36,237 nucleotides of DNA. It comes from Pseudomonas phage vB_PaeM-D14A. The stretch is taken from sequence record BK061475.1. One strand, 5' to 3'. The notes under the pieces are model-generated. The model saw only the letters and a program-made list of their open reading frames with translations. It did not search any database and was not told the origin of the DNA. Shown in pieces: positions 20,503 to 36,237 of the stretch (its first letter is position 1; every line of letters starts with the position of its first letter). A program made the translations under genes and the position numbers.

Positions 20503-21773
20503 TCGATGCCGCCCTCGCCCGCGTAACGGGCTACCTGACCAGCGCAGTCGAGCAGCTGCAGCGCGACGCCGGCTACCCGGTGCCGGTGTTCCGGCTCACG
20601 GTCGACGGCAACGACATCGCCCAGCTCATCAGCCCTCGGCTGATCGCCCTGGATCTGACCGACAATCGCGGCCTCGAGGCCGATCAGTTGAGCGTGACAC
20701 TCAGCGATCATGACGGGCTGCTCGCGATCCCCCCGCGCGGCGCCGTGCTGCACCTCTGGCTGGGCTGGAGTGACAGCGGACTGGTCGACAAGGGCACCTA
20801 CACCGTCGACGAAACCGAGCACAGCGGCGCGCCGGACGTGCTCAGCATCCGCGCCCGCTCAGCGGACCTGCGCAAGGGCCTGAAGGTCAAGCGCGAACGC
20901 AGCTGGAGCAGCCCGAAGACGCTGGGCGACGTACTCACCGACATCGCCCTCGGCAACAACCTGAAGCCGGTGCTCGCGCCGGCGCTGGCGGGCCTGCCGA
21001 TCCTGCAGCTGGACCAGGCCAACGAGTCCGACGCCAACTTGCTGACCCGCCTGGGCGAGGACTTCGACGCGGTGGCTACCGTGAAAGCCGGCTGCCTGCT
21101 CTGCCTGCCGGCCGGTGGCGGCAAGACCGCCAGTGGCCTGGCGCTGCCGCACATCACCCTCACCCGCCAGGATGGCGACCAGCACCGCTACCTGCAGGCC
21201 GACCGCGACAGCTACGACGGCGTGCGCGCGTACTTCTACGACGTGAACAGCGCGAAGAAGCAGGAGGCCATCGCCGGTGCCAAAGGCGACAACCTCAAGG
21301 ACCTGCGCCACACCTACAGCGACCGCCAGAGCGCCCTGCGCGCCGCCCGCGCCGAGTGGAACCGCCTACAGCGTGGCAGCGCCACGCTCAGCTACGTGCT
21401 CGCCAAGGGCCGGCCGGACCTGATCCCGGAGCTGACCTACACCCTGCAGGGCGTGAAGACGGAGATCGATGCGATCATCTGGTACGGCGGCAATGTGCAG
21501 CACAGCCTCAGCGCCGACGGCGGCTACATCACCAGCCTGGAGATGGAAAGCAAGCTGCCCGAGGACCTGGTCAGCGACCTGGCCGACGACACCGGCGGCG
21601 ACTACACCGGCATCATCGCCTACTTCCGCGACGAGAAGAGCGGGAAGGAGAAGACCATCACCGCGGGAGACCAGAGCAAGCCGCGCCGCCTGCGCTACCT
21701 GTACAGCACCAAGGCTAGCGCGAAGCGGGCTGTCGATCGGGAATGGGGGAGACTGCAACCACTGTCAAGATGA
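20499..21773 (+). CDS. D: tail protein D (late gene D)
   Basis: Probable GTG start at 20499 overlapping the U stop (GTGA). About 424 aa. The long 5' extension of ORF 20337 runs antisense across U and was rejected. Confidence 0.7.
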   Translation: MIDAALARVTGYLTSAVEQLQRDAGYPVPVFRLTVDGNDIAQLISPRLIALDLTDNRGLEADQLSVTLSDHDGLLAIPPRGAVLHLWLGWSDSGLVDKGTYTVDETEHSGAPDVLSIRARSADLRKGLKVKRERSWSSPKTLGDVLTDIALGNNLKPVLAPALAGLPILQLDQANESDANLLTRLGEDFDAVATVKAGCLLCLPAGGGKTASGLALPHITLTRQDGDQHRYLQADRDSYDGVRAYFYDVNSAKKQEAIAGAKGDNLKDLRHTYSDRQSALRAARAEWNRLQRGSATLSYVLAKGRPDLIPELTYTLQGVKTEIDAIIWYGGNVQHSLSADGGYITSLEMESKLPEDLVSDLADDTGGDYTGIIAYFRDEKSGKEKTITAGDQSKPRRLRYLYSTKASAKRAVDREWGRLQPLSR

Positions 21774-21905
21774 TCAAAGACCACAGAACGGCCCCTCCTG
21801 TGTTTTTTACGCCAAAAGGTCTCCAACAGCGCCCCCATTAGTCAGGCAAAATGCCAGAGTGAGAATTTGTCTCCCTCCCCCCCTTTCCCCCCTTCGTTTG
21901 CCCCG

Positions 21906-21911
21906 TATAAT
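21906..21911 (+). promoter_or_regulatory. TATAAT -10 hexamer upstream of the methyltransferase gene
   Basis: Perfect TATAAT 26 bp upstream of the ATG. A C-rich tract precedes it and there is no clear -35. Confidence 0.35.
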
Positions 21912-21936
21912 CGCGACCGTCAATAGGGGGTAATGC

Positions 21937-22935
21937 ATGCCAACAGCAGTTTCACTTTTTTCTGGATGTGGAGGGTCCGACGCAGGAGTCATCGCGGCGG
22001 GCTTCGACGTCATCATGGCAAACGACATCCTCCCCTACGCCCGAGACGTGTATTTGGCGAATTTTCCGGAAACCGACTATCGCCTAGGTGACGTGTGCGA
22101 CATTTCCGACTTTCCGGCAGCCGATTTACTTGTGGGTTGCTACCCTTGCCAAGGCTTCAGCCAAGGAGGAGCTCGCGAGGCCAACCGAAAAATCAATACC
22201 CTGTACCTTGAGTTCGCTCGCGCCTTAAGCATCATTCAGCCCAGAGCTTTCATTGCCGAGAACGTCTCTGGTCTACGTCGTAGCACCTACAGGCATCTAC
22301 TGGAAGACCAACTAACAAAGTTCGCGGAGGCCGGCGCACACGGTTATAGCGTATATTGGAAGCAGATAAATGCTCATGAGTACGGGGTCGCACAAGAAAG
22401 AAAGCGTGTAGTAATCGTAGGCATTCGCAAAGATTTGAATGCCGAATACAAATTCCCGGCCCCTACTCATGGCCCAAACGCTGAGCAACCATATTTCAAC
22501 ATTGCTCAAGCTCTGGAAGGACTACCTGAGTGGCCAGAAGGGGAGTTCTGCGAGGACCCCTTTCACTGGTATTACCTGTCCCGCAATCGGCGCAGAGATT
22601 GGTGTGAAATCAGCAAGACGATTGTCAGTCACATGCGCCACATGCCGCTGCATCCCAGTAGCCCCAAGCTACATAGAATCCATACTGATAAGTGGGAGTT
22701 TGAAGTAGATGAACCTGCCAGAAGGTTCTCCTTCAGGGAAGCGGCGCGCTTGCAAGGGTTTATGCCTCGCTATACTACTCATGGTGGAGACCTGATCTTC
22801 CCTGAAACCGTTGAAAGCAGTCAAAAAAATATTGAATACAACATTTTGCGACAGCGCTACAAGGTTGTAGGAAACGCTGTACCACCGCCTATGTTCGAGG
22901 CGGTGGCATCAGCACTACCAAACATCTGGCCTTAG
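21937..22935 (+). CDS. DNA (cytosine-5)-methyltransferase (low-GC island)
   Basis: Motif I LFSGCGG, motif IV GCYPCQGFSQ (catalytic PCQ), motif VI ENV, C-terminal VVGNAVPPPM (motif X). GC is clearly lower than the flanks. Confidence 0.9.
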   Translation: MPTAVSLFSGCGGSDAGVIAAGFDVIMANDILPYARDVYLANFPETDYRLGDVCDISDFPAADLLVGCYPCQGFSQGGAREANRKINTLYLEFARALSIIQPRAFIAENVSGLRRSTYRHLLEDQLTKFAEAGAHGYSVYWKQINAHEYGVAQERKRVVIVGIRKDLNAEYKFPAPTHGPNAEQPYFNIAQALEGLPEWPEGEFCEDPFHWYYLSRNRRRDWCEISKTIVSHMRHMPLHPSSPKLHRIHTDKWEFEVDEPARRFSFREAARLQGFMPRYTTHGGDLIFPETVESSQKNIEYNILRQRYKVVGNAVPPPMFEAVASALPNIWP

Positions 22936-23834
22936 ACCAAATCGAGTCTTTCTTCTAGAAAATTTGCTAGGATTTCTGGAGGATCAATATTCCTCCAGTC
23001 ATCCTCAAAACTAATATTTTTAACAATCCTCAACCTATCAAAAATCAACGTATCCCCTACCTCTCCCTCAACAGCCCATGTTCCCCTGTTATCTCGAAAG
23101 CTATGCGGAATAAATATAAGCTGCATCCAAGGATGTGTGGCATGTATATACCTCAACCGACCATGAGATATCTCACTCTGCTTTCTTGACCACTCTAAGC
23201 GTGAGCATGCACACTGAGCTAATGCAGATGGAATATTTCGGCACTCATACTCATCAAGAGACAGCCAAGCAACTAAGTCGATACCCCCATCACCTGAGTC
23301 TCTAGCGCGAAATGTTTCTTCATTACAAAGACCAACCGCCCCGATGTCCTTAGCTAGCTGATTGATTCGCTCCCATTTAGCCCCCCTGTATTCTGTTTCG
23401 TTCTTACCAAAAGCCTTGACTTTAGCTGCAACTGGAAATACTGAACGCAACGTAACAAGGGAAACCCTTTCAAAGGCATCAGTAAGCGAACCATTTATAT
23501 ACTGCCGATCAAAAAATGGGAGATTAGCACACAACAATATTAACACGTACAACTTATGCTCTTCTGGTAGAGTCTCAGGTGCACTAATAGTCCTCCTCCC
23601 AATGTCCAAAGAGAATGGATAACTACCTCCAAATGCTTCTACTCGCCACGCGATATGGTTAAAACAATCATCCAACTCTTGGGCTGATATCTTGCTCCCA
23701 CCAACATCTCTGATTTGGTCAGAGATGGTTTCTCTCGAGCACACTCGATCCTGCGTTACCAAGCATAGTATCTCAGCAAAATCCGCAATAGTGTGAACAT
23801 CCCTATCTCGTGGAGCATCCAGGTTGAGCATCAC
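22932..23834 (-). CDS. hypothetical protein with an Mrr-like GDGGID nuclease motif (candidate restriction/effector subunit)
   Basis: 300 aa, low GC. Motif RDSGDGGIDLVAW resembles the Mrr_cat PD-(D/E)xK signature. ATG at 23831 overlaps the upstream gene's stop. The 3' end overlaps the methyltransferase stop convergently. Confidence 0.5.
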   Translation of the reverse strand: MMLNLDAPRDRDVHTIADFAEILCLVTQDRVCSRETISDQIRDVGGSKISAQELDDCFNHIAWRVEAFGGSYPFSLDIGRRTISAPETLPEEHKLYVLILLCANLPFFDRQYINGSLTDAFERVSLVTLRSVFPVAAKVKAFGKNETEYRGAKWERINQLAKDIGAVGLCNEETFRARDSGDGGIDLVAWLSLDEYECRNIPSALAQCACSRLEWSRKQSEISHGRLRYIHATHPWMQLIFIPHSFRDNRGTWAVEGEVGDTLIFDRLRIVKNISFEDDWRNIDPPEILANFLEERLDLV

Positions 23835-24928
23835 TCTTCTCCAGACATCACATCTTGGATAGAAGCAAAAAGAGCAGAAGCCGACTTTTTAATCCGCTCA
23901 GCCTGATTTAAGTCAGGCTGATCCAGCCCTTCCACCGCACTAAGCGTAAACTGAGCGTTCTTTATGCTACTCTCAGCCTCTCTTAGAAGGTGTCGTAACG
24001 CCTCTAGCGGCCCTTCCGTATATAGGTCAGCATGTGCTAAAGGCTCGCCATGTCTAAGTACTTCCAGAGCGCGATCATTCGCCACAACCCTCGACAATTT
24101 ATCAAAGTTGCGCGACTCACCTAACACTGTACTTGGCCCATGACTTTTGTCGAAAACCCACCCAAAAAACTCTACGAACTCCTTTTCCTTCAAACCAGCC
24201 GCATCAACATCAGACGCACCTTTAATACCAATAAAGTCACAAATATTAGGATAACCAATACCAGTAGTAAGCAAAGAGAAAGGTATATCATCCTCTTCCA
24301 GCTTTAGACTTACTAGCAAACCAGTATCTCTAGCATGTTCCAAAAGCTTGAGCCCTGTTAGGAGTTTTGCAACATGTGAAGATTTACTTCCAATCTCTTT
24401 AGCCAGAGCTTTATGTGCATCCGCATGACCTTTATCTGCATGACGCTCTCGCAGTTGCTTCAGATATCTAGCCTTAGCTAAGGAGTCCCACTCTTTGATG
24501 CCAGTTATGTGGCGATACCCTAGATAACTAAGTATGTTATCCCGATCATCAAACTCCAAGACCGGAATATCATTAACCTTCTGCCTTGCAGATTCTCTAG
24601 CCTGCTTAACTTGACCAGCCATTACTGGAGGAGGGCTACTGCTTGCCAGAAGTTTTAAGGCACCAAGCCGCCGGTTACCTTCCACAACTGTATAACCACC
24701 ACCTGCACGAGGAACGACCAGCAGGGGCTCACCTAAGAAGAATCCATGCTCCCCGATAGATAGCATTAGCTCTATCAAGTTACACTCTAGGAGCAAGTAC
24801 TTTATTACATCCTCATCAGGCTTATTTCGCAAAGCCACTGGAAGCCGAGGGTTATCAGGATCAAAATGAAGCTCATTCAAACTAACGCTTGCAAGCTTTG
24901 TCATAACCAGTCCTTTACACAGTAACAA
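23831..24928 (-). CDS. ParB/Srx-fold nuclease-domain protein (candidate defence/restriction component)
   Basis: N-terminal YTVVEGNRRLGALKLL is the ParB GxRR box. Low GC. The likely start is the ATG at 24904, preceded by AAAGGA. 357-365 aa. Confidence 0.55.
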   Translation of the reverse strand: MLLCKGLVMTKLASVSLNELHFDPDNPRLPVALRNKPDEDVIKYLLLECNLIELMLSIGEHGFFLGEPLLVVPRAGGGYTVVEGNRRLGALKLLASSSPPPVMAGQVKQARESARQKVNDIPVLEFDDRDNILSYLGYRHITGIKEWDSLAKARYLKQLRERHADKGHADAHKALAKEIGSKSSHVAKLLTGLKLLEHARDTGLLVSLKLEEDDIPFSLLTTGIGYPNICDFIGIKGASDVDAAGLKEKEFVEFFGWVFDKSHGPSTVLGESRNFDKLSRVVANDRALEVLRHGEPLAHADLYTEGPLEALRHLLREAESSIKNAQFTLSAVEGLDQPDLNQAERIKKSASALFASIQDVMSGEE

Positions 24929-24960
24929 GGCTGCGAAGCCTACCCATCTATTAGTCCTAG

Positions 24961-25311
24961 TCAGGCATCCGCGGCACAGGCTAGGCGCTTCTGATCGTAG
25001 TCCTTCTTATGTCCCTGTAGTTCAGGCAATGGTTCGTCCATATCCGCCTGTACAACCAGATCGGACAGTACCCACCCCAGCGCCTCGTAGGCTGCAAGGC
25101 AAACATCGCTGGCACTCCTACGGATACCTGGTCGGTACCGATCCAGATCGCCGAACACCTCGGTCACTTGGTCAACACTCGAGGCCTGCAACGCGTCCAA
25201 CATCCTCTGGTGAAGGTTGTTCATCAATTCGATCTGGGCGGCCGAGTCAGCCACCGCAGTACATGAAACCATCAGTCCGACCGCAGCGACCGTTCCCTTG
25301 AGCCAGTTCAT
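24961..25311 (-). CDS. hypothetical secreted protein (Sec signal peptide)
   Basis: 116 aa. N-terminal VAAVGLMVSCTAVA-DS signal. High GC. Confidence 0.5.
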   Translation of the reverse strand: MNWLKGTVAAVGLMVSCTAVADSAAQIELMNNLHQRMLDALQASSVDQVTEVFGDLDRYRPGIRRSASDVCLAAYEALGWVLSDLVVQADMDEPLPELQGHKKDYDQKRLACAADA

Positions 25312-25629: not shown

Positions 25630-25971
25630 CTATTTGCTTGTACGACGCGACTCAGTTGACTCTGAGATACCTCGCCCCACCCGTAGGTACGCTATTCGGT
25701 CTTCTTCCTCCATGGACTTCATGTACCTCAGCACATCAAGTTCCTCCTGACTGAGTGACTCAAGCTCTGCAGGCTGGCGACGCCCAGTTATAACGTAAAG
25801 CACATCAGCGCCAAGCAACGAGGCCCTCAGTAGATAGGCCGCGTCAGGGCTGCGTTCGCCTTTCTCATATGCCAGTTGGGTGTTTTTCGACACACCACAC
25901 TGCTCGGCAAGTTCGGTTTGGCTCATCCCCAACCGCTGCCGCTCTTCCTTCAGGCGTTCGCCTATGGTCAT
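25630..25971 (-). CDS. XRE-family HTH repressor (candidate immunity repressor C/CI)
   Basis: LGMSQTELAEQCGVSKNTQLAYEKGERSP is a canonical Cro/C1 HTH. Divergent from the Cro-like gene. Confidence 0.8.
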   Translation of the reverse strand: MTIGERLKEERQRLGMSQTELAEQCGVSKNTQLAYEKGERSPDAAYLLRASLLGADVLYVITGRRQPAELESLSQEELDVLRYMKSMEEEDRIAYLRVGRGISESTESRRTSK

Positions 25972-31435: not shown

Positions 31436-31687
31436 ATGCAAGCGAATCAACCCCAAGGCGGCGACGCCAAGGCTAGCACAGCCACGTCAGCCACCCGCAC
31501 TCGTCCAGCGATGGCCAGCAAGCGGCTGGCCCTTCCGAGCACCTGCGACATCTGCGGCAACGCGCGTTCCACCGGCAAACACCAGCGCTGCAGCCGGATT
31601 CGCCAACAGGCCAAGGCGGTCGAGTGGGCCAGCTACATGGCCAACCTGGCGGCCAAGAAAGCGCAGGGAGGGCGTCGGCATGCTTAA
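31436..31687 (+). CDS. hypothetical small protein
   Basis: 83 aa. RBS AAGGAGAG. CDICGN...HQRC. Confidence 0.45.
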   Translation: MQANQPQGGDAKASTATSATRTRPAMASKRLALPSTCDICGNARSTGKHQRCSRIRQQAKAVEWASYMANLAAKKAQGGRRHA

Positions 31688-33458
31688 GCGTACCCTCTAC
31701 CACTTCCACTTCTGCTGCGGCCTCGGCGGCGGCGCCGCAGGCTTCAACCGGGCGCGTCCGCGGGTCGGCAACGTCGAGGCCGAATGGGTCTGCCTCGGCG
31801 GGATCGACGTGGACCCAGCCGGCCTGCGCGACTTCGAGCGACTGGCTGGTGTCCCGGGCACCCTGCTGGACCTCTTCACCCGCGACCAGTACGTGCGGTT
31901 CCACGGCAAGGAGCCGCCGGCGGGCTGGCGGGAGGCAACCCCGGAGAACATCCGCCGCGCCGCGGGCGGGCGCCGACCGGACGCCGTGTTCATTAGCTCG
32001 CCCTGCAAGGGTGCCAGCGGCCTGCTGTCGGAGAAGATGAGCCTGACCCCGAAGTACCAGGCGCTGAACGAGTTGACGCTGCGCTGCATCTGGCTGATGG
32101 GCGAGGCATGGGCCGATGACCCGGTGCCGCTTATCGTCTTCGAGAACGTCCCGCGCCTGGCGAGCCGCGGCCGGCACCTGCTTGACCAGATCAACAGCCT
32201 ACTCGGCGGCTTCGGCTACGCCGTGGCGGAAACCACTCACGACTGCGGCGAGCTGGGCGGTCTGGCCCAGTCGCGCAAGCGCTTCCTGCTGGTCGCGCGG
32301 CACGTCGAGAAAGTGCCGCCCTTCCTGTACGAGCCGGAGAAGAAGTCGCTCCGCGCCGTCGGCGACATCCTCGGCCGCATGCCGCTTCCCGGCGACATCG
32401 AGGCCGCCGGCCCAATGCACCGCGTACCGTCCCTGCAGTGGAAGACCTGGGTGCGCCTCGCCCTGGTGCGCGCCGGCAGCGACTGGCGCAGCCTGAATGA
32501 CCTGGCCGTCGAGGACGGCTACCTGCGCGATCTGATCATCGTGCCGGAGTACCACCGGGGCGTCCTGGGCGTGAATCACTGGGGCGATTCGTGTGGCGTT
32601 GTCGCCGGCGCGAGCCGCCCGATGAACGGGCGGTTCTCAGTCGCGGATCCTCGCGCGCCGGCAAACGCCCTGCAGTACCAGCAGTACGGCGTGCGCCGCT
32701 GGACTGACGCCTCAGGCGCCATCATCGGCGTCAAGTCGCCCGGCCAGGGCACGTACTCCGTCGCCGATCCCCGCGGCCAGAGCTTCGGCAAGTACCCCGT
32801 CACCGACTGGGACGGCCCGTCCGGCACCGTGATCGCGGCCAGTACTACCGGCCAGGGTGCATTTGCTGTCGCGGACCCGCGCCACCGTGGCCCTGCCAAA
32901 CACTCTAACGAGTTCCGCATCGTGCCTTGGGACCGCCACGCACAAGCGGTCACCAGTGCCCATGGCACAGGCCAGTGCGTCGAAGACCCGCGCGTGCTCA
33001 GCCGAACGAAGGGAGACCCGTATCTCACTGGCGGCCACTACGGCGTAGTTGGGTTCGACCAATCCGCCGGCGCGGTGTCGGCCAGTGCGCGGCACGACAA
33101 CGGTCGATGGAGCGTGGCCGATCCGCGCATGCCGGCCGCGAATGACCGTCTGACCTGCATCATCCGCAGCCTGGACGGCACCTGGCACAGGCCCTTCACC
33201 ACCCTGGAGTTGGCCGCGCTGCAGAGCCTGGTGGACCCGGAGGAACAGTTGACCCTCGACGGCCTGAGCGACAGCGACTGGCGCGAGCGCATCGGCAACG
33301 CCGTACCGCCGGCCGCGGCCGAGGCCATCGCCGGCGTAATGGGTACCACCCTGCTGCTGGCCGAAGCCGGCGAAACCTTCATGCTCAGCAATACGCCGAT
33401 CTGGGTGCGCCCGGTTGCGGTGGCGCTGAGCGTCGCGCAACAGGAGGTGCAGCAATGA
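31680..33458 (+). CDS. DNA (cytosine-5)-methyltransferase with a repeat-containing variable (target-recognition) region
   Basis: Motif I FCCGLGGG, motif IV SSPCKGASG, motif VI FENVPRL, motif VIII QSRKRFLLVA, motif X IGNAVPPAAA. Five SVADPR-type repeat modules lie between motifs VIII and X. Confidence 0.8.
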   Translation: MLKRTLYHFHFCCGLGGGAAGFNRARPRVGNVEAEWVCLGGIDVDPAGLRDFERLAGVPGTLLDLFTRDQYVRFHGKEPPAGWREATPENIRRAAGGRRPDAVFISSPCKGASGLLSEKMSLTPKYQALNELTLRCIWLMGEAWADDPVPLIVFENVPRLASRGRHLLDQINSLLGGFGYAVAETTHDCGELGGLAQSRKRFLLVARHVEKVPPFLYEPEKKSLRAVGDILGRMPLPGDIEAAGPMHRVPSLQWKTWVRLALVRAGSDWRSLNDLAVEDGYLRDLIIVPEYHRGVLGVNHWGDSCGVVAGASRPMNGRFSVADPRAPANALQYQQYGVRRWTDASGAIIGVKSPGQGTYSVADPRGQSFGKYPVTDWDGPSGTVIAASTTGQGAFAVADPRHRGPAKHSNEFRIVPWDRHAQAVTSAHGTGQCVEDPRVLSRTKGDPYLTGGHYGVVGFDQSAGAVSASARHDNGRWSVADPRMPAANDRLTCIIRSLDGTWHRPFTTLELAALQSLVDPEEQLTLDGLSDSDWRERIGNAVPPAAAEAIAGVMGTTLLLAEAGETFMLSNTPIWVRPVAVALSVAQQEVQQ

Positions 33459-34687
33459 AAGCCCTTTCCCCACGCCAGAGTGACATCTTCGCCGCCGGCG
33501 CCCAGCGCCTGCAGATGACCGAGAGCATCGAACTGACCATTCAGAGCATGCAGGCCTACGGCGCCGACCATGAGCACTGGGCGGTGGCCTGGTCAGGCGG
33601 CAAGGACAGCACCACCACGCTAACGCTGCTGATTTGGCTGATCGACACCGGACGAATCAAAGCGCCGAAGACGCTGACCGTGTTCTACGCGGACACCCGG
33701 CAGGAGCTGCCGCCGCTGGCCATCGCGGCGCACCAGATCATGGACGAATTGCGGGACCGCGGCATCCGCGTCGAGGTGGTATGCGCACCGCTCGACAAGC
33801 GCTTCATGGTCTACATCCTGGGCCGCGGCGTGCCCCCGCCGAACAACAACACCCTGCGCTGGTGCACCCGCCAGATCAAGATCGACCCGATGCAGGCCGC
33901 CCTCGAGCAGCGCCTGGCCGCGCTCGACGGCAACGTGCTGATGATCACCGGCGTGCGCCAGGGCGAGAGCGCCATCCGTGACAAGCGGATCGAGATGTCC
34001 TGCGGCAAGGACAGCGCCGAGTGCGGCCAGGGCTGGTATCAGAAGATCCTCCCCGAGGCAAAAGGCCTGAAGGGCCGGCTCGCCACCCTCGCCCCACTCC
34101 TGCACTGGCGCGTCTGCCACGTCTGGGAGTGGCTGAAGCACTGGGCTCCACTCGCTGAGTTCGGCGACTGGTCCACCGCGATGATCGCCGACGCCTACGG
34201 CGGCGACGAGGCCGAGGAGATCAACGCTCGAACCGGTTGCACCGGCTGTCCGCTGGCCAGCGAGGAGAAGGCGCTCGAAACCGTGCTGGCCATGCCGCAC
34301 TGGGCATACCTGACGCCGCTGCGCGGCCTGAAAGAGCTATGGCGGGAGCTTCGCGAGCCCCAGCACCGCCTGCGCAAGGCCGGCATCGAGCGGCTGAAGG
34401 ACGGCAGCATCGCCGCGAACCCCCAGCGTATGGGCCCGATCCTGCTGGAGTCCCGCTTGATGGGACTGGAGCGCATCCTGGACATCCAGGCCGAGTGCAA
34501 CGCCGCAGCCGACCGCCTCGGCCGCCCTCGCATCGACCTGATCAACGCCGAGGAAGAAGCCCGCATCCGCGAACTGATCGCCGCCGGCACCTGGCCGGAT
34601 GGCTGGGACGGCGACGAACCAATCGCCACCATCCCTCTCGACAAAATTTTCGCCGACGGCGCGGTGCAGCCGCTGCTGTTCTGCTGA
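33455..34687 (+). CDS. PP-loop ATP-pyrophosphatase, PAPS-reductase/DndC-like
   Basis: WAVAWSGGKDSTTTL (SGGxDS). Cys-rich C-terminal half (CGKDSAECGQG, CTGCP). ATG overlaps the methyltransferase stop (ATGA). Confidence 0.7.
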   Translation: MKALSPRQSDIFAAGAQRLQMTESIELTIQSMQAYGADHEHWAVAWSGGKDSTTTLTLLIWLIDTGRIKAPKTLTVFYADTRQELPPLAIAAHQIMDELRDRGIRVEVVCAPLDKRFMVYILGRGVPPPNNNTLRWCTRQIKIDPMQAALEQRLAALDGNVLMITGVRQGESAIRDKRIEMSCGKDSAECGQGWYQKILPEAKGLKGRLATLAPLLHWRVCHVWEWLKHWAPLAEFGDWSTAMIADAYGGDEAEEINARTGCTGCPLASEEKALETVLAMPHWAYLTPLRGLKELWRELREPQHRLRKAGIERLKDGSIAANPQRMGPILLESRLMGLERILDIQAECNAAADRLGRPRIDLINAEEEARIRELIAAGTWPDGWDGDEPIATIPLDKIFADGAVQPLLFC

Positions 34688-34886: not shown

Positions 34887-35098
34887 TCAAGCAGCCCCCG
34901 GGCACAATCCTGACCTTCGAGGATCTGCAGCAGCTAACCGGTTACACCAAGCGCTCTGGTGTAGAGCGGGCACTGCGTAAACAGGGAATCCGTTGGTTCT
35001 GGGGCCGTCACGGCCCTTGGACCACTGTAGAGCTGATTAACCAGGCCGGCGGGCTGCGGCCGGCGACTCAGGAGCAGTACGGCGTCGAGATTCTATGA
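34883..35098 (+). CDS. DUF4224-like small protein (excisionase-like) preceding the integrase
   Basis: LTFEDLQQLTGYTKRSGVERALRKQGIRWF matches the typical pattern of integrase-adjacent DUF4224 proteins. Confidence 0.55.
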   Translation: MIKQPPGTILTFEDLQQLTGYTKRSGVERALRKQGIRWFWGRHGPWTTVELINQAGGLRPATQEQYGVEIL

Positions 35099-36237
35099 GG
35101 CGATCCAGGAAGCACAATCCCAACATCCCCCCGCACATCGACCAGGCCGCTATCCCAGCGGCCGTTTTCTTTGACCACCGCGGCAAAGGTACCTGGTACA
35201 CCCTGCACCGTGATGAGGCCGGCCGGCAGCGCCGGCAGAACATCGCCAGCAGTTCGGCCACACTGGCCGAGCTGCACAAGATCATGGAGGTGCGCAACGG
35301 CATCGACCGCGAGAGCCTGAACCACCTGTGCGAGCAGTACCACGGCAGCGCCAAGTTCAAGCGGCTCGCGCCGAAGACCCAGGACAGCTACACCTGGTCT
35401 CGCGACGTCCTAGTCAACATCCCCACCAAGCTCGGCAAGCCTCTCGGCGAACTGGCCGTGCGCAAGTTCACCCCCGCGCTGATCCAGCGGATCATTGACC
35501 GGATCGCCGACGAGGGGACACCGTCGAAGGCTGCCCATGCGCTGCGGTACCTGCGCCTGGTGATGCAGTGGGGGCGCAACCGCGGCTACCTGGACAACAA
35601 CCCGGCCATGGGCATAGAGGCACCGGTAGAGCGCAAGCAGCGCCGCCTGCCGTCGCATGACGTGATGCAACGCCTGATCGACCGCGCTCGCGAGCTGGGC
35701 CAGCTGAAACGCGGGCAGAAGGATGCAGTGCCGCCGCACCTGAGCTACGTCATGGAGCTGGCCTACCTCTGCCGGCTGCGCGGCATCGAGGTCGTCACCC
35801 TGACCGACGCCAACGAGCTGGCCGAGGGCGTGCTCACCAACCGGCGCAAGGGCAGCCGCGACAATGTCGTCACCTGGACGCCGCGCCTGCGCGCTGCCTG
35901 GGACGCCGCCAAGGCTCGCCGCGCCCAGGTATGGAAAGCCCGGGGCACGGCCGTGCCGGTCAACCCCGAGAAGCGCTTCATCATCACCGCCGAGCACGGC
36001 GGGCCGCTGGGCAAGTCTGGCCTGGACACTGCCTGGAACCGTTTCATCCGCAACGCCATCACCGCGGGCGTCATCACCGCCGAGCAGCGCTTCGGCCTGC
36101 ACGACCTCAAGCGCCGTGGCATCACCGACACCCCCGGCACCAGGGCCGACAAGCAGGAAGCCAGCGGCCACCGCGACGAATCCATGCTCGACATCTACGA
36201 CCTGAGCGTCCCGAAGGTCGCCCCCTCCGCTCTCTGA
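35095..36237 (+). CDS. int: tyrosine-type site-specific integrase
   Basis: 380 aa. C-terminal catalytic region HDLKRRG...SGHRDESMLDIYDL (R...HxxR...Y). Last gene of the prophage. Confidence 0.8.
   Translation: MRRSRKHNPNIPPHIDQAAIPAAVFFDHRGKGTWYTLHRDEAGRQRRQNIASSSATLAELHKIMEVRNGIDRESLNHLCEQYHGSAKFKRLAPKTQDSYTWSRDVLVNIPTKLGKPLGELAVRKFTPALIQRIIDRIADEGTPSKAAHALRYLRLVMQWGRNRGYLDNNPAMGIEAPVERKQRRLPSHDVMQRLIDRARELGQLKRGQKDAVPPHLSYVMELAYLCRLRGIEVVTLTDANELAEGVLTNRRKGSRDNVVTWTPRLRAAWDAAKARRAQVWKARGTAVPVNPEKRFIITAEHGGPLGKSGLDTAWNRFIRNAITAGVITAEQRFGLHDLKRRGITDTPGTRADKQEASGHRDESMLDIYDLSVPKVAPSAL

Follow-up and report, generated by a model that had tools for sequence, protein, structure and literature searches.

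We analysed a 36,237-nucleotide stretch of DNA from Pseudomonas phage vB_PaeM-D14A (BK061475.1; the whole stretch is called the window), a phiCTX-like prophage of Pseudomonas aeruginosa (Citexvirus, P2-like), and here describe three genes that lie between its tail gene gpD and its immunity repressor gene. The genes encode a C5 cytosine DNA methyltransferase, a protein with a ParB/Srx fold and a helix-turn-helix (HTH), and a nuclease-fold protein, NucB. Comparison of sequences, predicted folds and gene neighbourhoods makes it probable that the trio is a prophage-borne, restriction-modification (R-M)-like defence cassette, the restriction half of which would consist of two subunits and be of a new kind.

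More than 140 loci, in bacteria and in other P2-like phages, carry the trio. The ParB and NucB genes are adjacent in all of the roughly 130 loci with upstream DNA, and a C5 methyltransferase gene stands beside the pair in more than 90% of loci. An earlier reading of the window from its letters alone (the sequence-only reading) had singled out the same three genes, and had named a lack of co-occurrence in other genomes among the outcomes that would speak against the idea; the linkage found across genome, viral and metagenome collections is strong.

Gene content and protein folds

The three genes sit in a segment of replaced cargo. Bases 14000-36237 of the window are 94% identical to phage Dobby across 83% of their length (96% for phiCTX), and the similarity to Dobby ends at 21742 and restarts at 24971. 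G+C content is 47.3% in 21780-24960, against 63.6% for the whole window and 68% immediately to the left; along the profile it runs at 0.41-0.54 in 21800-24999, compared with 0.64-0.73 on the left side and 0.63-0.67 on the right. The corresponding slot of phage Dobby is occupied not by the trio but by a LuxR-family gene and a hypothetical gene. The gpD/repressor junction of this phiCTX-like prophage is a site of cargo exchange, and the island is one such cargo. The sequence-only reading had claimed a sharp drop in G+C over about 3.2 kb at 21780-24960, three genes within it and horizontal acquisition at the late-gene/repressor junction of a P2-like prophage; all three open reading frames are present, and its coordinates fit the Dobby breakpoints. 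The features of the island are as follows.

21743..24970, no strand: replaced cargo segment (low-GC island, about 3.2 kb), delimited by Dobby similarity and the G+C profile
21906..21911, plus strand: TATAAT, a -10-like hexamer 26 nucleotides upstream of the methyltransferase ATG
21937-22935, plus strand: complete gene for a C5 cytosine DNA methyltransferase of 332 amino acids
22932..22935, no strand: TTAG, the convergent overlap of two stop codons, TAG of the methyltransferase gene and TAA of the NucB gene
22932..23831, minus strand: NucB, 299 amino acids, with an N-terminal winged helix and a C-terminal PD-(D/E)xK nuclease fold; start most likely ATG 23831
23829..23834, minus strand: GTGATG junction, in which the ParB stop TGA and the NucB ATG share one base
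23831..24904, minus strand: ParB/Srx-fold protein, 357 amino acids, with an N-terminal nucleotide-binding-type domain, an HTH and a C-terminal helical domain

The methyltransferase is complete, as first read, and covers the whole Pfam DNA_methylase profile (positions 3-322 of 324, E 1e-57). In addition, it exceeds the cutoff of TIGR00675 dcm (E 7.5e-48). Its best solved relative is M.HaeIII (E 5e-38, with an alignment that spans the variable target-recognition region), and it is 63-64% identical to Mth of coliphage Wphi and relatives. The gene had also been credited with a TATAAT promoter of its own. The hexamer is there, but a promoter is not supported: the -35 position is poor (CTTTCC), and a promoter scan called no sigma-70 promoter for the methyltransferase.

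Both overlaps that had been read at the ends of the leftward genes exist as described, namely the stop/start overlap (GTGATG) and the convergent overlap with the methyltransferase stop (TTAG). The GTGATG overlap is predicted to couple translation of the ParB and NucB genes. Inside the 5' part of the NucB gene lies a perfect 10-bp inverted repeat with a 3-nucleotide loop (CATCTCTGATTTGGTCAGAGATG, 23705-23727), which the scanner rates as a terminator-like site for the plus strand, where it could keep methyltransferase transcripts from running antisense into the operon; it may also be a product of chance.

The ParB protein most likely starts at ATG 24904, with AAGGA 8 nucleotides upstream (TTG 24928 being less likely), and is 100% identical to an NCBI protein of the same 357-residue length. 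A ParB/Srx N-terminal fold is followed by an HTH, as in the ParB clamps that hydrolyse cytidine triphosphate (CTP). Specifically, the conserved motifs are FDPxNPR, VVEGNRRL (box II, phosphate-binding), YLGYRHITG and, in the HTH, LAKEIGSKSxxVAKLLTG. The GNRR core is invariant in 89/89 homologues examined (26/26 plus 63/63), and the ParB sequence is better conserved than that of NucB. The downstream partner of the gene is always NucB, and the ParA partner gene of ParABS systems has no equivalent here, as the gene tables of loci L001-L004 and L039-L041 contain no parA-type gene. PHROGs places the protein in family 3694, 'unknown function', and Pfam gives no DUF262 or DUF1524 match at E<=1. In PADLOC, residues 9-165 match the first ~165 positions of the PD-Lambda-5_A profiles (428-508 positions, E 6.5e-20), and residues 51-350 match PDC-M38A, an untested candidate system. 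A 2025 survey found that ParB-fold proteins bind ATP (adenosine triphosphate), CTP or GTP (guanosine triphosphate) unpredictably, that many bind none, and that base specificity is not predictable from sequence (PMC12704722); we therefore leave the nucleotide of the ParB protein unnamed.

NucB has no match in Pfam, NCBIfam or PADLOC, even at E<=1, and belongs to PHROGs family 3984, 'unknown function'. Its best structural match is NgoMIV (8.5, 159 residues), followed by MspJI (7.3), AspBHI (7.0), the LlaBIII nuclease domain (7.0) and AF1548 (7.0); SdaI, HamA, BsaWI, AgeI, Cfr10I, SgrAI and McrC are further matches, and the N-terminal ~100 residues match winged-helix proteins of the Pex, PadR and ArsR types. 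The fold is PD-(D/E)xK, with restriction enzymes as its nearest relatives, among them the Mrr-like MspJI, AspBHI and LlaBIII. A NucB-family profile searched against PDB sequences returned MspJI as its sole match, a weak one (E 1.6), in which SGDGGID...LAQCAC of NucB lies on SGDGGVD...LGQAKC, the catalytic D...Q-x-K region. The NucB family conserves E121, D185 and Q206 and, on the next helix, K217, Q218 and E220, and the signature GDxGxD...QC(A/G)C...K occurs in 135/149 diverse representatives and in 80/80 metagenomic relatives. We read NucB as a candidate PD-(D/E)xK nuclease with a relocated lysine, in which K217 and E220 of the following helix may substitute for the canonical residue. The family is large: at E<=1e-3 it numbers 1671 representatives of 50%-identity clusters, of which 515 remain at E<=1e-30.

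Of the motifs pointed out in the sequence-only reading, VVEGNRRLGAL and SGDGGIDLVAW are both found in the leftward proteins. The proposed resemblance of NucB to Mrr-type PD-(D/E)xK nucleases holds for the fold and for SGDGGID, which is shared with MspJI, but not for the canonical lysine, which is replaced, nor at the level of families, as there is no Mrr_cat match. Two cysteines flanking the active-site strand (C207 and C209, in QCAC) are invariant in the NucB family, and C101 is nearly invariant among close homologues (the three correspond to window ~23205-23531, minus strand); the side chains are expected to face away from the catalytic side, and these cysteines may have a structural, metal or redox role.

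Recurrence and modularity of the trio

Three collections were scanned: one genome per species (32 loci), IMG/VR viral contigs (31 loci) and metagenomes (80 loci, from a distant NucB clade at 28-43% identity). The genome loci come from Proteobacteria, Bacteroidota, Desulfobacteraceae and Hydrogenedentales; ParB is upstream of NucB wherever upstream DNA is present, and a C5 methyltransferase is found in 31/32. Among the viral loci, ParB is upstream in all but one contig, which is cut at the NucB start, and the C5 methyltransferase is present and convergent in 31/31. Taken together, 63/64 genome and viral loci have ParB immediately upstream of NucB on the same strand, and the same holds for 70/70 informative metagenome loci. 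The metagenomic trio is mostly one co-directional operon, and its C5 methyltransferase (68 informative loci) is adjacent in 55, elsewhere in the flank in 8 and absent in 5. The exact cassette of the window occurs on at least 15 P. aeruginosa contigs, every time in the gpD-repressor slot. Plasmids rarely carry the trio (1 of 72,556 records). The chromosomal neighbours are otherwise mostly unrelated housekeeping genes, and the trio thus behaves as a self-contained mini-island. At one metagenomic locus (L097:638-2791), a 717-residue protein of unusual architecture, with a BsuBI/PstI restriction-enzyme HTH domain and an AAA_21/SMC-like ATPase, is encoded upstream of ParB-NucB and adjoins a methyltransferase fragment.

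The three proteins do not evolve alike. Across 57 loci, identity to the window proteins correlates between ParB and NucB (Spearman 0.73, p 1e-10), but there is no correlation of the methyltransferase with ParB (0.07) or with NucB (0.20). ParB and NucB co-evolve as one machine, whose methyltransferase partner is exchangeable. Furthermore, when the proteins of 113 loci are clustered, the methyltransferases fall into 10 clusters at 50% identity and the NucB proteins into 21 at 40%; the biggest NucB cluster is combined with methyltransferases from six clusters, and the biggest methyltransferase cluster likewise with NucB proteins from six.

Exceptional loci bear on the same point. In Salinibius (L031:8973-13883), ParB-NucB abuts dndB, dndC and dndD, and no C5 methyltransferase lies within 8 kb on either side. 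DndC- and DndD-like genes directly follow ParB-NucB at a second locus (L133, 1764-4815), where no C5 methyltransferase occurs in 3.8 kb downstream and the contig ends at ParB. The existence of two unrelated loci with such phosphorothioation genes (dndB/C/D/E-like) suggests that the ParB-NucB module can partner with a different DNA mark. Elsewhere the methyltransferase stands beside a second nuclease gene, of the NotI family (L014:8913-11046, L015:4491-6767 and L048:7028-9253), the NaeI family (L146:3807-6647) or the HNH type (L141:2698-4869); either one methyltransferase serves two nucleases there, or the pair has been added onto a complete Type II system. Vsr genes are found near the trio in three loci, as is expected where the DNA really carries 5-methylcytosine. 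At two loci (L025 and L035) the NucB match is truncated and the ParB and methyltransferase matches are full length; loss of the nuclease with retention of the methyltransferase fits R-M logic.

Prophage and hotspot setting

The island lies between the end of gpD (21773) and the 3' end of a conserved backbone gene of 116 amino acids (24961-25311, minus strand). Three further features of the window belong to its setting.

21782..21808, plus strand: G+C-rich hairpin and T-run just past the gpD stop (cacagaacggcccctcctgtg then ttttttac), read from the sequence
25630-25971, minus strand: HTH immunity repressor gene, after which the 116-residue gene comes
35095-36237: integrase gene, at the end of the window

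The ParB-NucB operon, the repressor gene and the 116-residue gene are all encoded on one strand, and a terminator scan showed no intrinsic terminator-like site between the repressor gene and the operon. Expression of the operon in the lysogen is therefore plausible. The hairpin at the island's left edge probably serves as the late-operon terminator, although the scan called this palindrome on the minus strand only. The 116-residue gene was considered as a member of the cassette and rejected, being conserved backbone that is also present in Dobby; it is probably co-transcribed with the repressor in the lysogen, and its product has a signal-peptide-like N-terminus (MNWLKGTVAAVGLMVSCTAVA) and falls in PHROG 26546, 'unknown function'.

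The backbone also carries a second, larger C5-methyltransferase-like gene (592 amino acids, 31680-33458, plus strand), directly followed, just ahead of the integrase, by a PAPS-reductase-family gene (410 amino acids, 33455-34687, plus strand). This pair is also found in Dobby, and the DNA of its methyltransferase-like gene matches the unrelated Pseudomonas phages PP9W, LKA5 and D14H. The two genes could form a separate DNA-modification module of the phage backbone.

Coliphage Wphi has the trio at the other P2 hotspot (tin/old), after gene A, with the same 4-nucleotide convergent stop overlap as in the window. Its proteins are 63% (Mth), 30% (gp96, the NucB counterpart) and 39% (gp98, the ParB counterpart) identical to those of the window. 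The Wphi version is present in 104/5426 complete Escherichia coli genomes (~2%), where PGAP names the products 'ParB N-terminal domain-containing protein', 'hypothetical protein' (NucB) and 'DNA cytosine methyltransferase', and also in Yersinia phage HQ103, E. coli phages vB_EcoM-12474 II-V and a P2 isolate. The slot between gpD and the repressor houses the trio not only in the window but also in P2-like prophages of Halopseudomonas oceani and Chromobacterium violaceum. In Agrobacterium the trio resides on a mobile element and adjoins a Type I R-M system. In phage hotspots, where room is scarce, selection can act on the trio as one unit. The H. oceani slot (L039:10022-11723) also holds genes for a UmuC-like polymerase with IMS domains and a UmuD-like S24 peptidase.

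Mechanism, alternatives and known systems

We propose that the C5 methyltransferase would mark the resident host and prophage DNA with 5-methylcytosine, while the ParB/Srx-HTH and winged-helix/PD-(D/E)xK proteins would come in a fixed ratio from a single operon with coupled translation, one that shares the repressor's strand and is probably active in the lysogen. ParB and NucB would jointly form a two-subunit restriction enzyme that damages incoming unmarked DNA. NucB is the predicted catalytic subunit that cuts DNA, and ParB the predicted DNA-binding or switch subunit, whose GNRR nucleotide pocket would license or withhold cleavage; this role is proposed on the analogy of the ParB-superfamily NTPase-nucleases (nucleoside triphosphatase-nucleases) DndI, SspE and GmrSD. 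Because the pair associates with at least 10 methyltransferase clusters, with dnd genes in two cases and with complete Type II neighbours, ParB-NucB likely senses the presence or absence of a modification, unlike an orthodox enzyme locked to one recognition sequence. From gene content, folds, conserved residues, synteny and co-evolution, all of which are observed, we infer that ParB and NucB form a complex, use a nucleotide and act as a nuclease, that methylation protects, and that the trio has an anti-phage effect.

More tentatively, ParB-NucB may represent a new class of restriction enzyme, in which a ParB nucleotide switch of the canonical type scans DNA and gates the PD-(D/E)xK nuclease according to the self mark. 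ParB would then possibly be a CTP- or ATP-gated DNA clamp, and the module would be portable among many C5 methyltransferases, phosphorothioation and methyltransferases that already have an orthodox nuclease. If true, restriction would for the first time be seen to employ the ParB switch of chromosome segregation as its motor or sensor.

Several observations weigh against the R-M-like reading. The canonical PD-(D/E)xK lysine is replaced in the NucB family by an invariant alanine (Q-C-A-C, where Mrr and MspJI have Q-x-K), and the predicted activity of NucB thus depends on the assumed substitute K217. The box III E-N pair of ParB proteins (consensus E-N-x-x-R), which acts in CTP hydrolysis, is not conserved in the ParB protein, which has YLGYRHITG there with the arginine kept. 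Only 11/28 purified ParB-fold proteins bound any nucleoside triphosphate in the 2025 survey (PMC12704722). The adjacency to dnd genes could reflect the clustering of defence islands and not functional coupling, and in the at least five loci with an orthodox nuclease the pair could be an accessory and not the cognate restriction enzyme. Moreover, three to five loci lack a nearby modification gene: the flanks of L122, L139 and L145 contain none, and that of L143 has an insertion sequence element. The whole case is computational, with nuclease activity, nucleotide binding, methylation specificity and defence all standing as predictions. The alternatives nevertheless all fit the synteny data less well than does the R-M-like reading.

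An HTH protein gene followed by a nuclease gene, with overlapping codons and convergent to a methyltransferase gene, is the classic C-R/M layout of C-protein systems. The trio might accordingly be read as an orthodox Type II R-M system, in which NucB alone is the cognate sequence-specific enzyme and the HTH-bearing ParB-like protein is an oversized transcriptional controller of the C-protein type that delays or tunes the nuclease; that the best structural match of NucB is NgoMIV, an orthodox enzyme, agrees with this. We consider it unlikely, however, since a repressor would hardly require a ParB protein of 357 residues, with GNRR kept without exception and with conservation above that of the nuclease. 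NucB and methyltransferase clusters are, in addition, paired many-to-many, which is awkward for a sequence-locked enzyme, and the dnd-linked loci have no C5 methyltransferase at all.

PD-lambda-5, a compact prophage 'RM+Abi' system (PMC9519451), and PrrC-EcoprrI provide the model for a second alternative, namely that the pair is a backup or abortive-infection module on a modification system, triggered by an attack on the machinery or by another infection cue and followed by cell killing or indiscriminate DNA degradation; on this view unmodified DNA would not be restricted by ParB-NucB. PD-Lambda-5_A offers the nearest counterpart to the ParB protein's N-terminal domain, and the pair sometimes adjoins complete Type II systems. 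In the great majority of loci, however, the methyltransferase has no other nuclease partner and there is no primary R-M system to back up, and PD-lambda-5 differs in architecture, with a HEPN effector and a ParB domain fused to the methyltransferase. This explanation appears improbable.

The tight linkage to C5 methyltransferases would also suit a non-defence role in 5-methylcytosine housekeeping, the pair acting as a repair or mismatch nuclease analogous to Vsr or as a regulator of the methyltransferase. Vsr is itself a small restriction-endonuclease-like nuclease linked to C5 methyltransferases. Such a role is very doubtful: bona fide Vsr genes are additional to the pair in three loci, the pair co-evolves internally and not with the methyltransferase, it occurs with dnd genes in place of a methyltransferase, and the trio occupies phage defence hotspots where space is limited. 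Finally, hardly any credence can be given to a Type IV Mrr-like modification-dependent nuclease whose place next to a methyltransferase is due to chance, or to a role of ParB in partition or silencing of the prophage, for although the winged helix plus Mrr-like nuclease layout, the SGDGGID shared with MspJI and the ParB fold with HTH point that way, a nuclease that cuts methylated DNA would be incompatible with an obligately linked methyltransferase, NucB has no Mrr_cat match in Pfam even at E<=1, the loci inspected have no parA, and the prophage integrates.

Pfam, NCBIfam, PHROGs and PADLOC (dated 2023-2026) assign no function to the ParB-NucB pair, and a literature search returned no description of the trio. 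The P2-hotspot paper and the 2025 ParB-fold survey (PMC12704722) do not mention it, and a 2025 R-M review never mentions ParB. The earlier view that the pair matches no characterised defence family is thus upheld, with NucB unmatched in Pfam, NCBIfam and PADLOC; in PADLOC, to which it had looked for a check, the ParB protein has only the partial matches to the PD-Lambda-5_A N-terminus and PDC-M38A. The trio is most likely an R-M-like system, and what is new in kind is its restriction half.

If confirmed, a widespread restriction architecture, which some 2% of complete E. coli genomes share with P. aeruginosa prophages, would be added to those known; a ParB-fold switch with a separate nuclease of non-canonical active site would link the field of ParB nucleotide switches to phage defence, and two large phage families, PHROGs 3984 and 3694, would be assigned a function. 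P2-like prophages would then impose a methylation-based barrier on superinfecting phages and incoming plasmids, of relevance to P. aeruginosa phage therapy and to genetic work in E. coli W. The Wphi version can be tested at once in a standard E. coli host.

Comparison with known systems sets the trio apart from each of them. Mrr, MspJI and AspBHI (Type IV/Type IIM) cut modified DNA and have no cognate methyltransferase, whereas the trio keeps a methyltransferase in most loci and NucB lacks both the Q-x-K lysine and an Mrr_cat match. The methyltransferase matches the DruM models of Druantia type II (E 2e-104), but the other two genes match no Druantia model, and that system requires DruM together with DruE, DruF and DruG, while the island holds three genes only; Druantia was rejected for want of these partner genes. 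From the orthodox Type II enzymes of the NgoMIV/Cfr10I/Bse634I structural group NucB differs in belonging to no Pfam restriction-enzyme family, in its obligatory ParB partner, in having QCAC without a canonical lysine, and in methyltransferase partners that are freely swapped. LlaJI-type NTP-dependent R-M systems are built on McrBC-like subunits; the trio has no AAA+ GTPase, and a ParB/Srx fold stands as its putative nucleotide-dependent subunit.

PD-lambda-5 (Vassallo et al. 2022) resembles the trio in being prophage-borne, in containing a methyltransferase and in an A protein that begins with a ParB-like domain; no other library entry comes as close to the initial 160 residues of the ParB protein. 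Membership was rejected, as only this N-domain matches; the ParB domain of PD-lambda-5 is fused to the methyltransferase, its partner is a HEPN protein, and NucB has no match in PADLOC.

The nearest mechanistic precedent, by analogy, would be the DUF262 branch of the ParB superfamily (GmrSD, SspE and DndI), in which modification of the DNA is sensed by a ParB-like NTPase that governs a nuclease; DndI is stimulated to hydrolyse ATP by the phosphorothioate self mark and lets go of self DNA (PMC11662687, PMC12065111). Like DndI, SspE, GmrSD and BrxU, the trio couples a ParB/Srx-superfamily nucleotide-binding domain to a DNA nuclease alongside a DNA-marking system, and its pair even occurs beside dnd clusters. 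A DUF262/GmrSD-type assignment of the ParB protein was rejected, given the absence of DUF262 and DUF1524 matches and the motif GNRR in place of DGxQR. DndI, SspE and GmrSD have the DUF262 type of domain (DGxQR) with a fused HNH/DUF1524 nuclease, whereas the ParB protein of the trio is of the canonical type (GNRR, ParB_N/TIGR00180-like) with an HTH, the predicted nuclease is a PD-(D/E)xK protein on a separate polypeptide, and the usual partner is a C5 methyltransferase.

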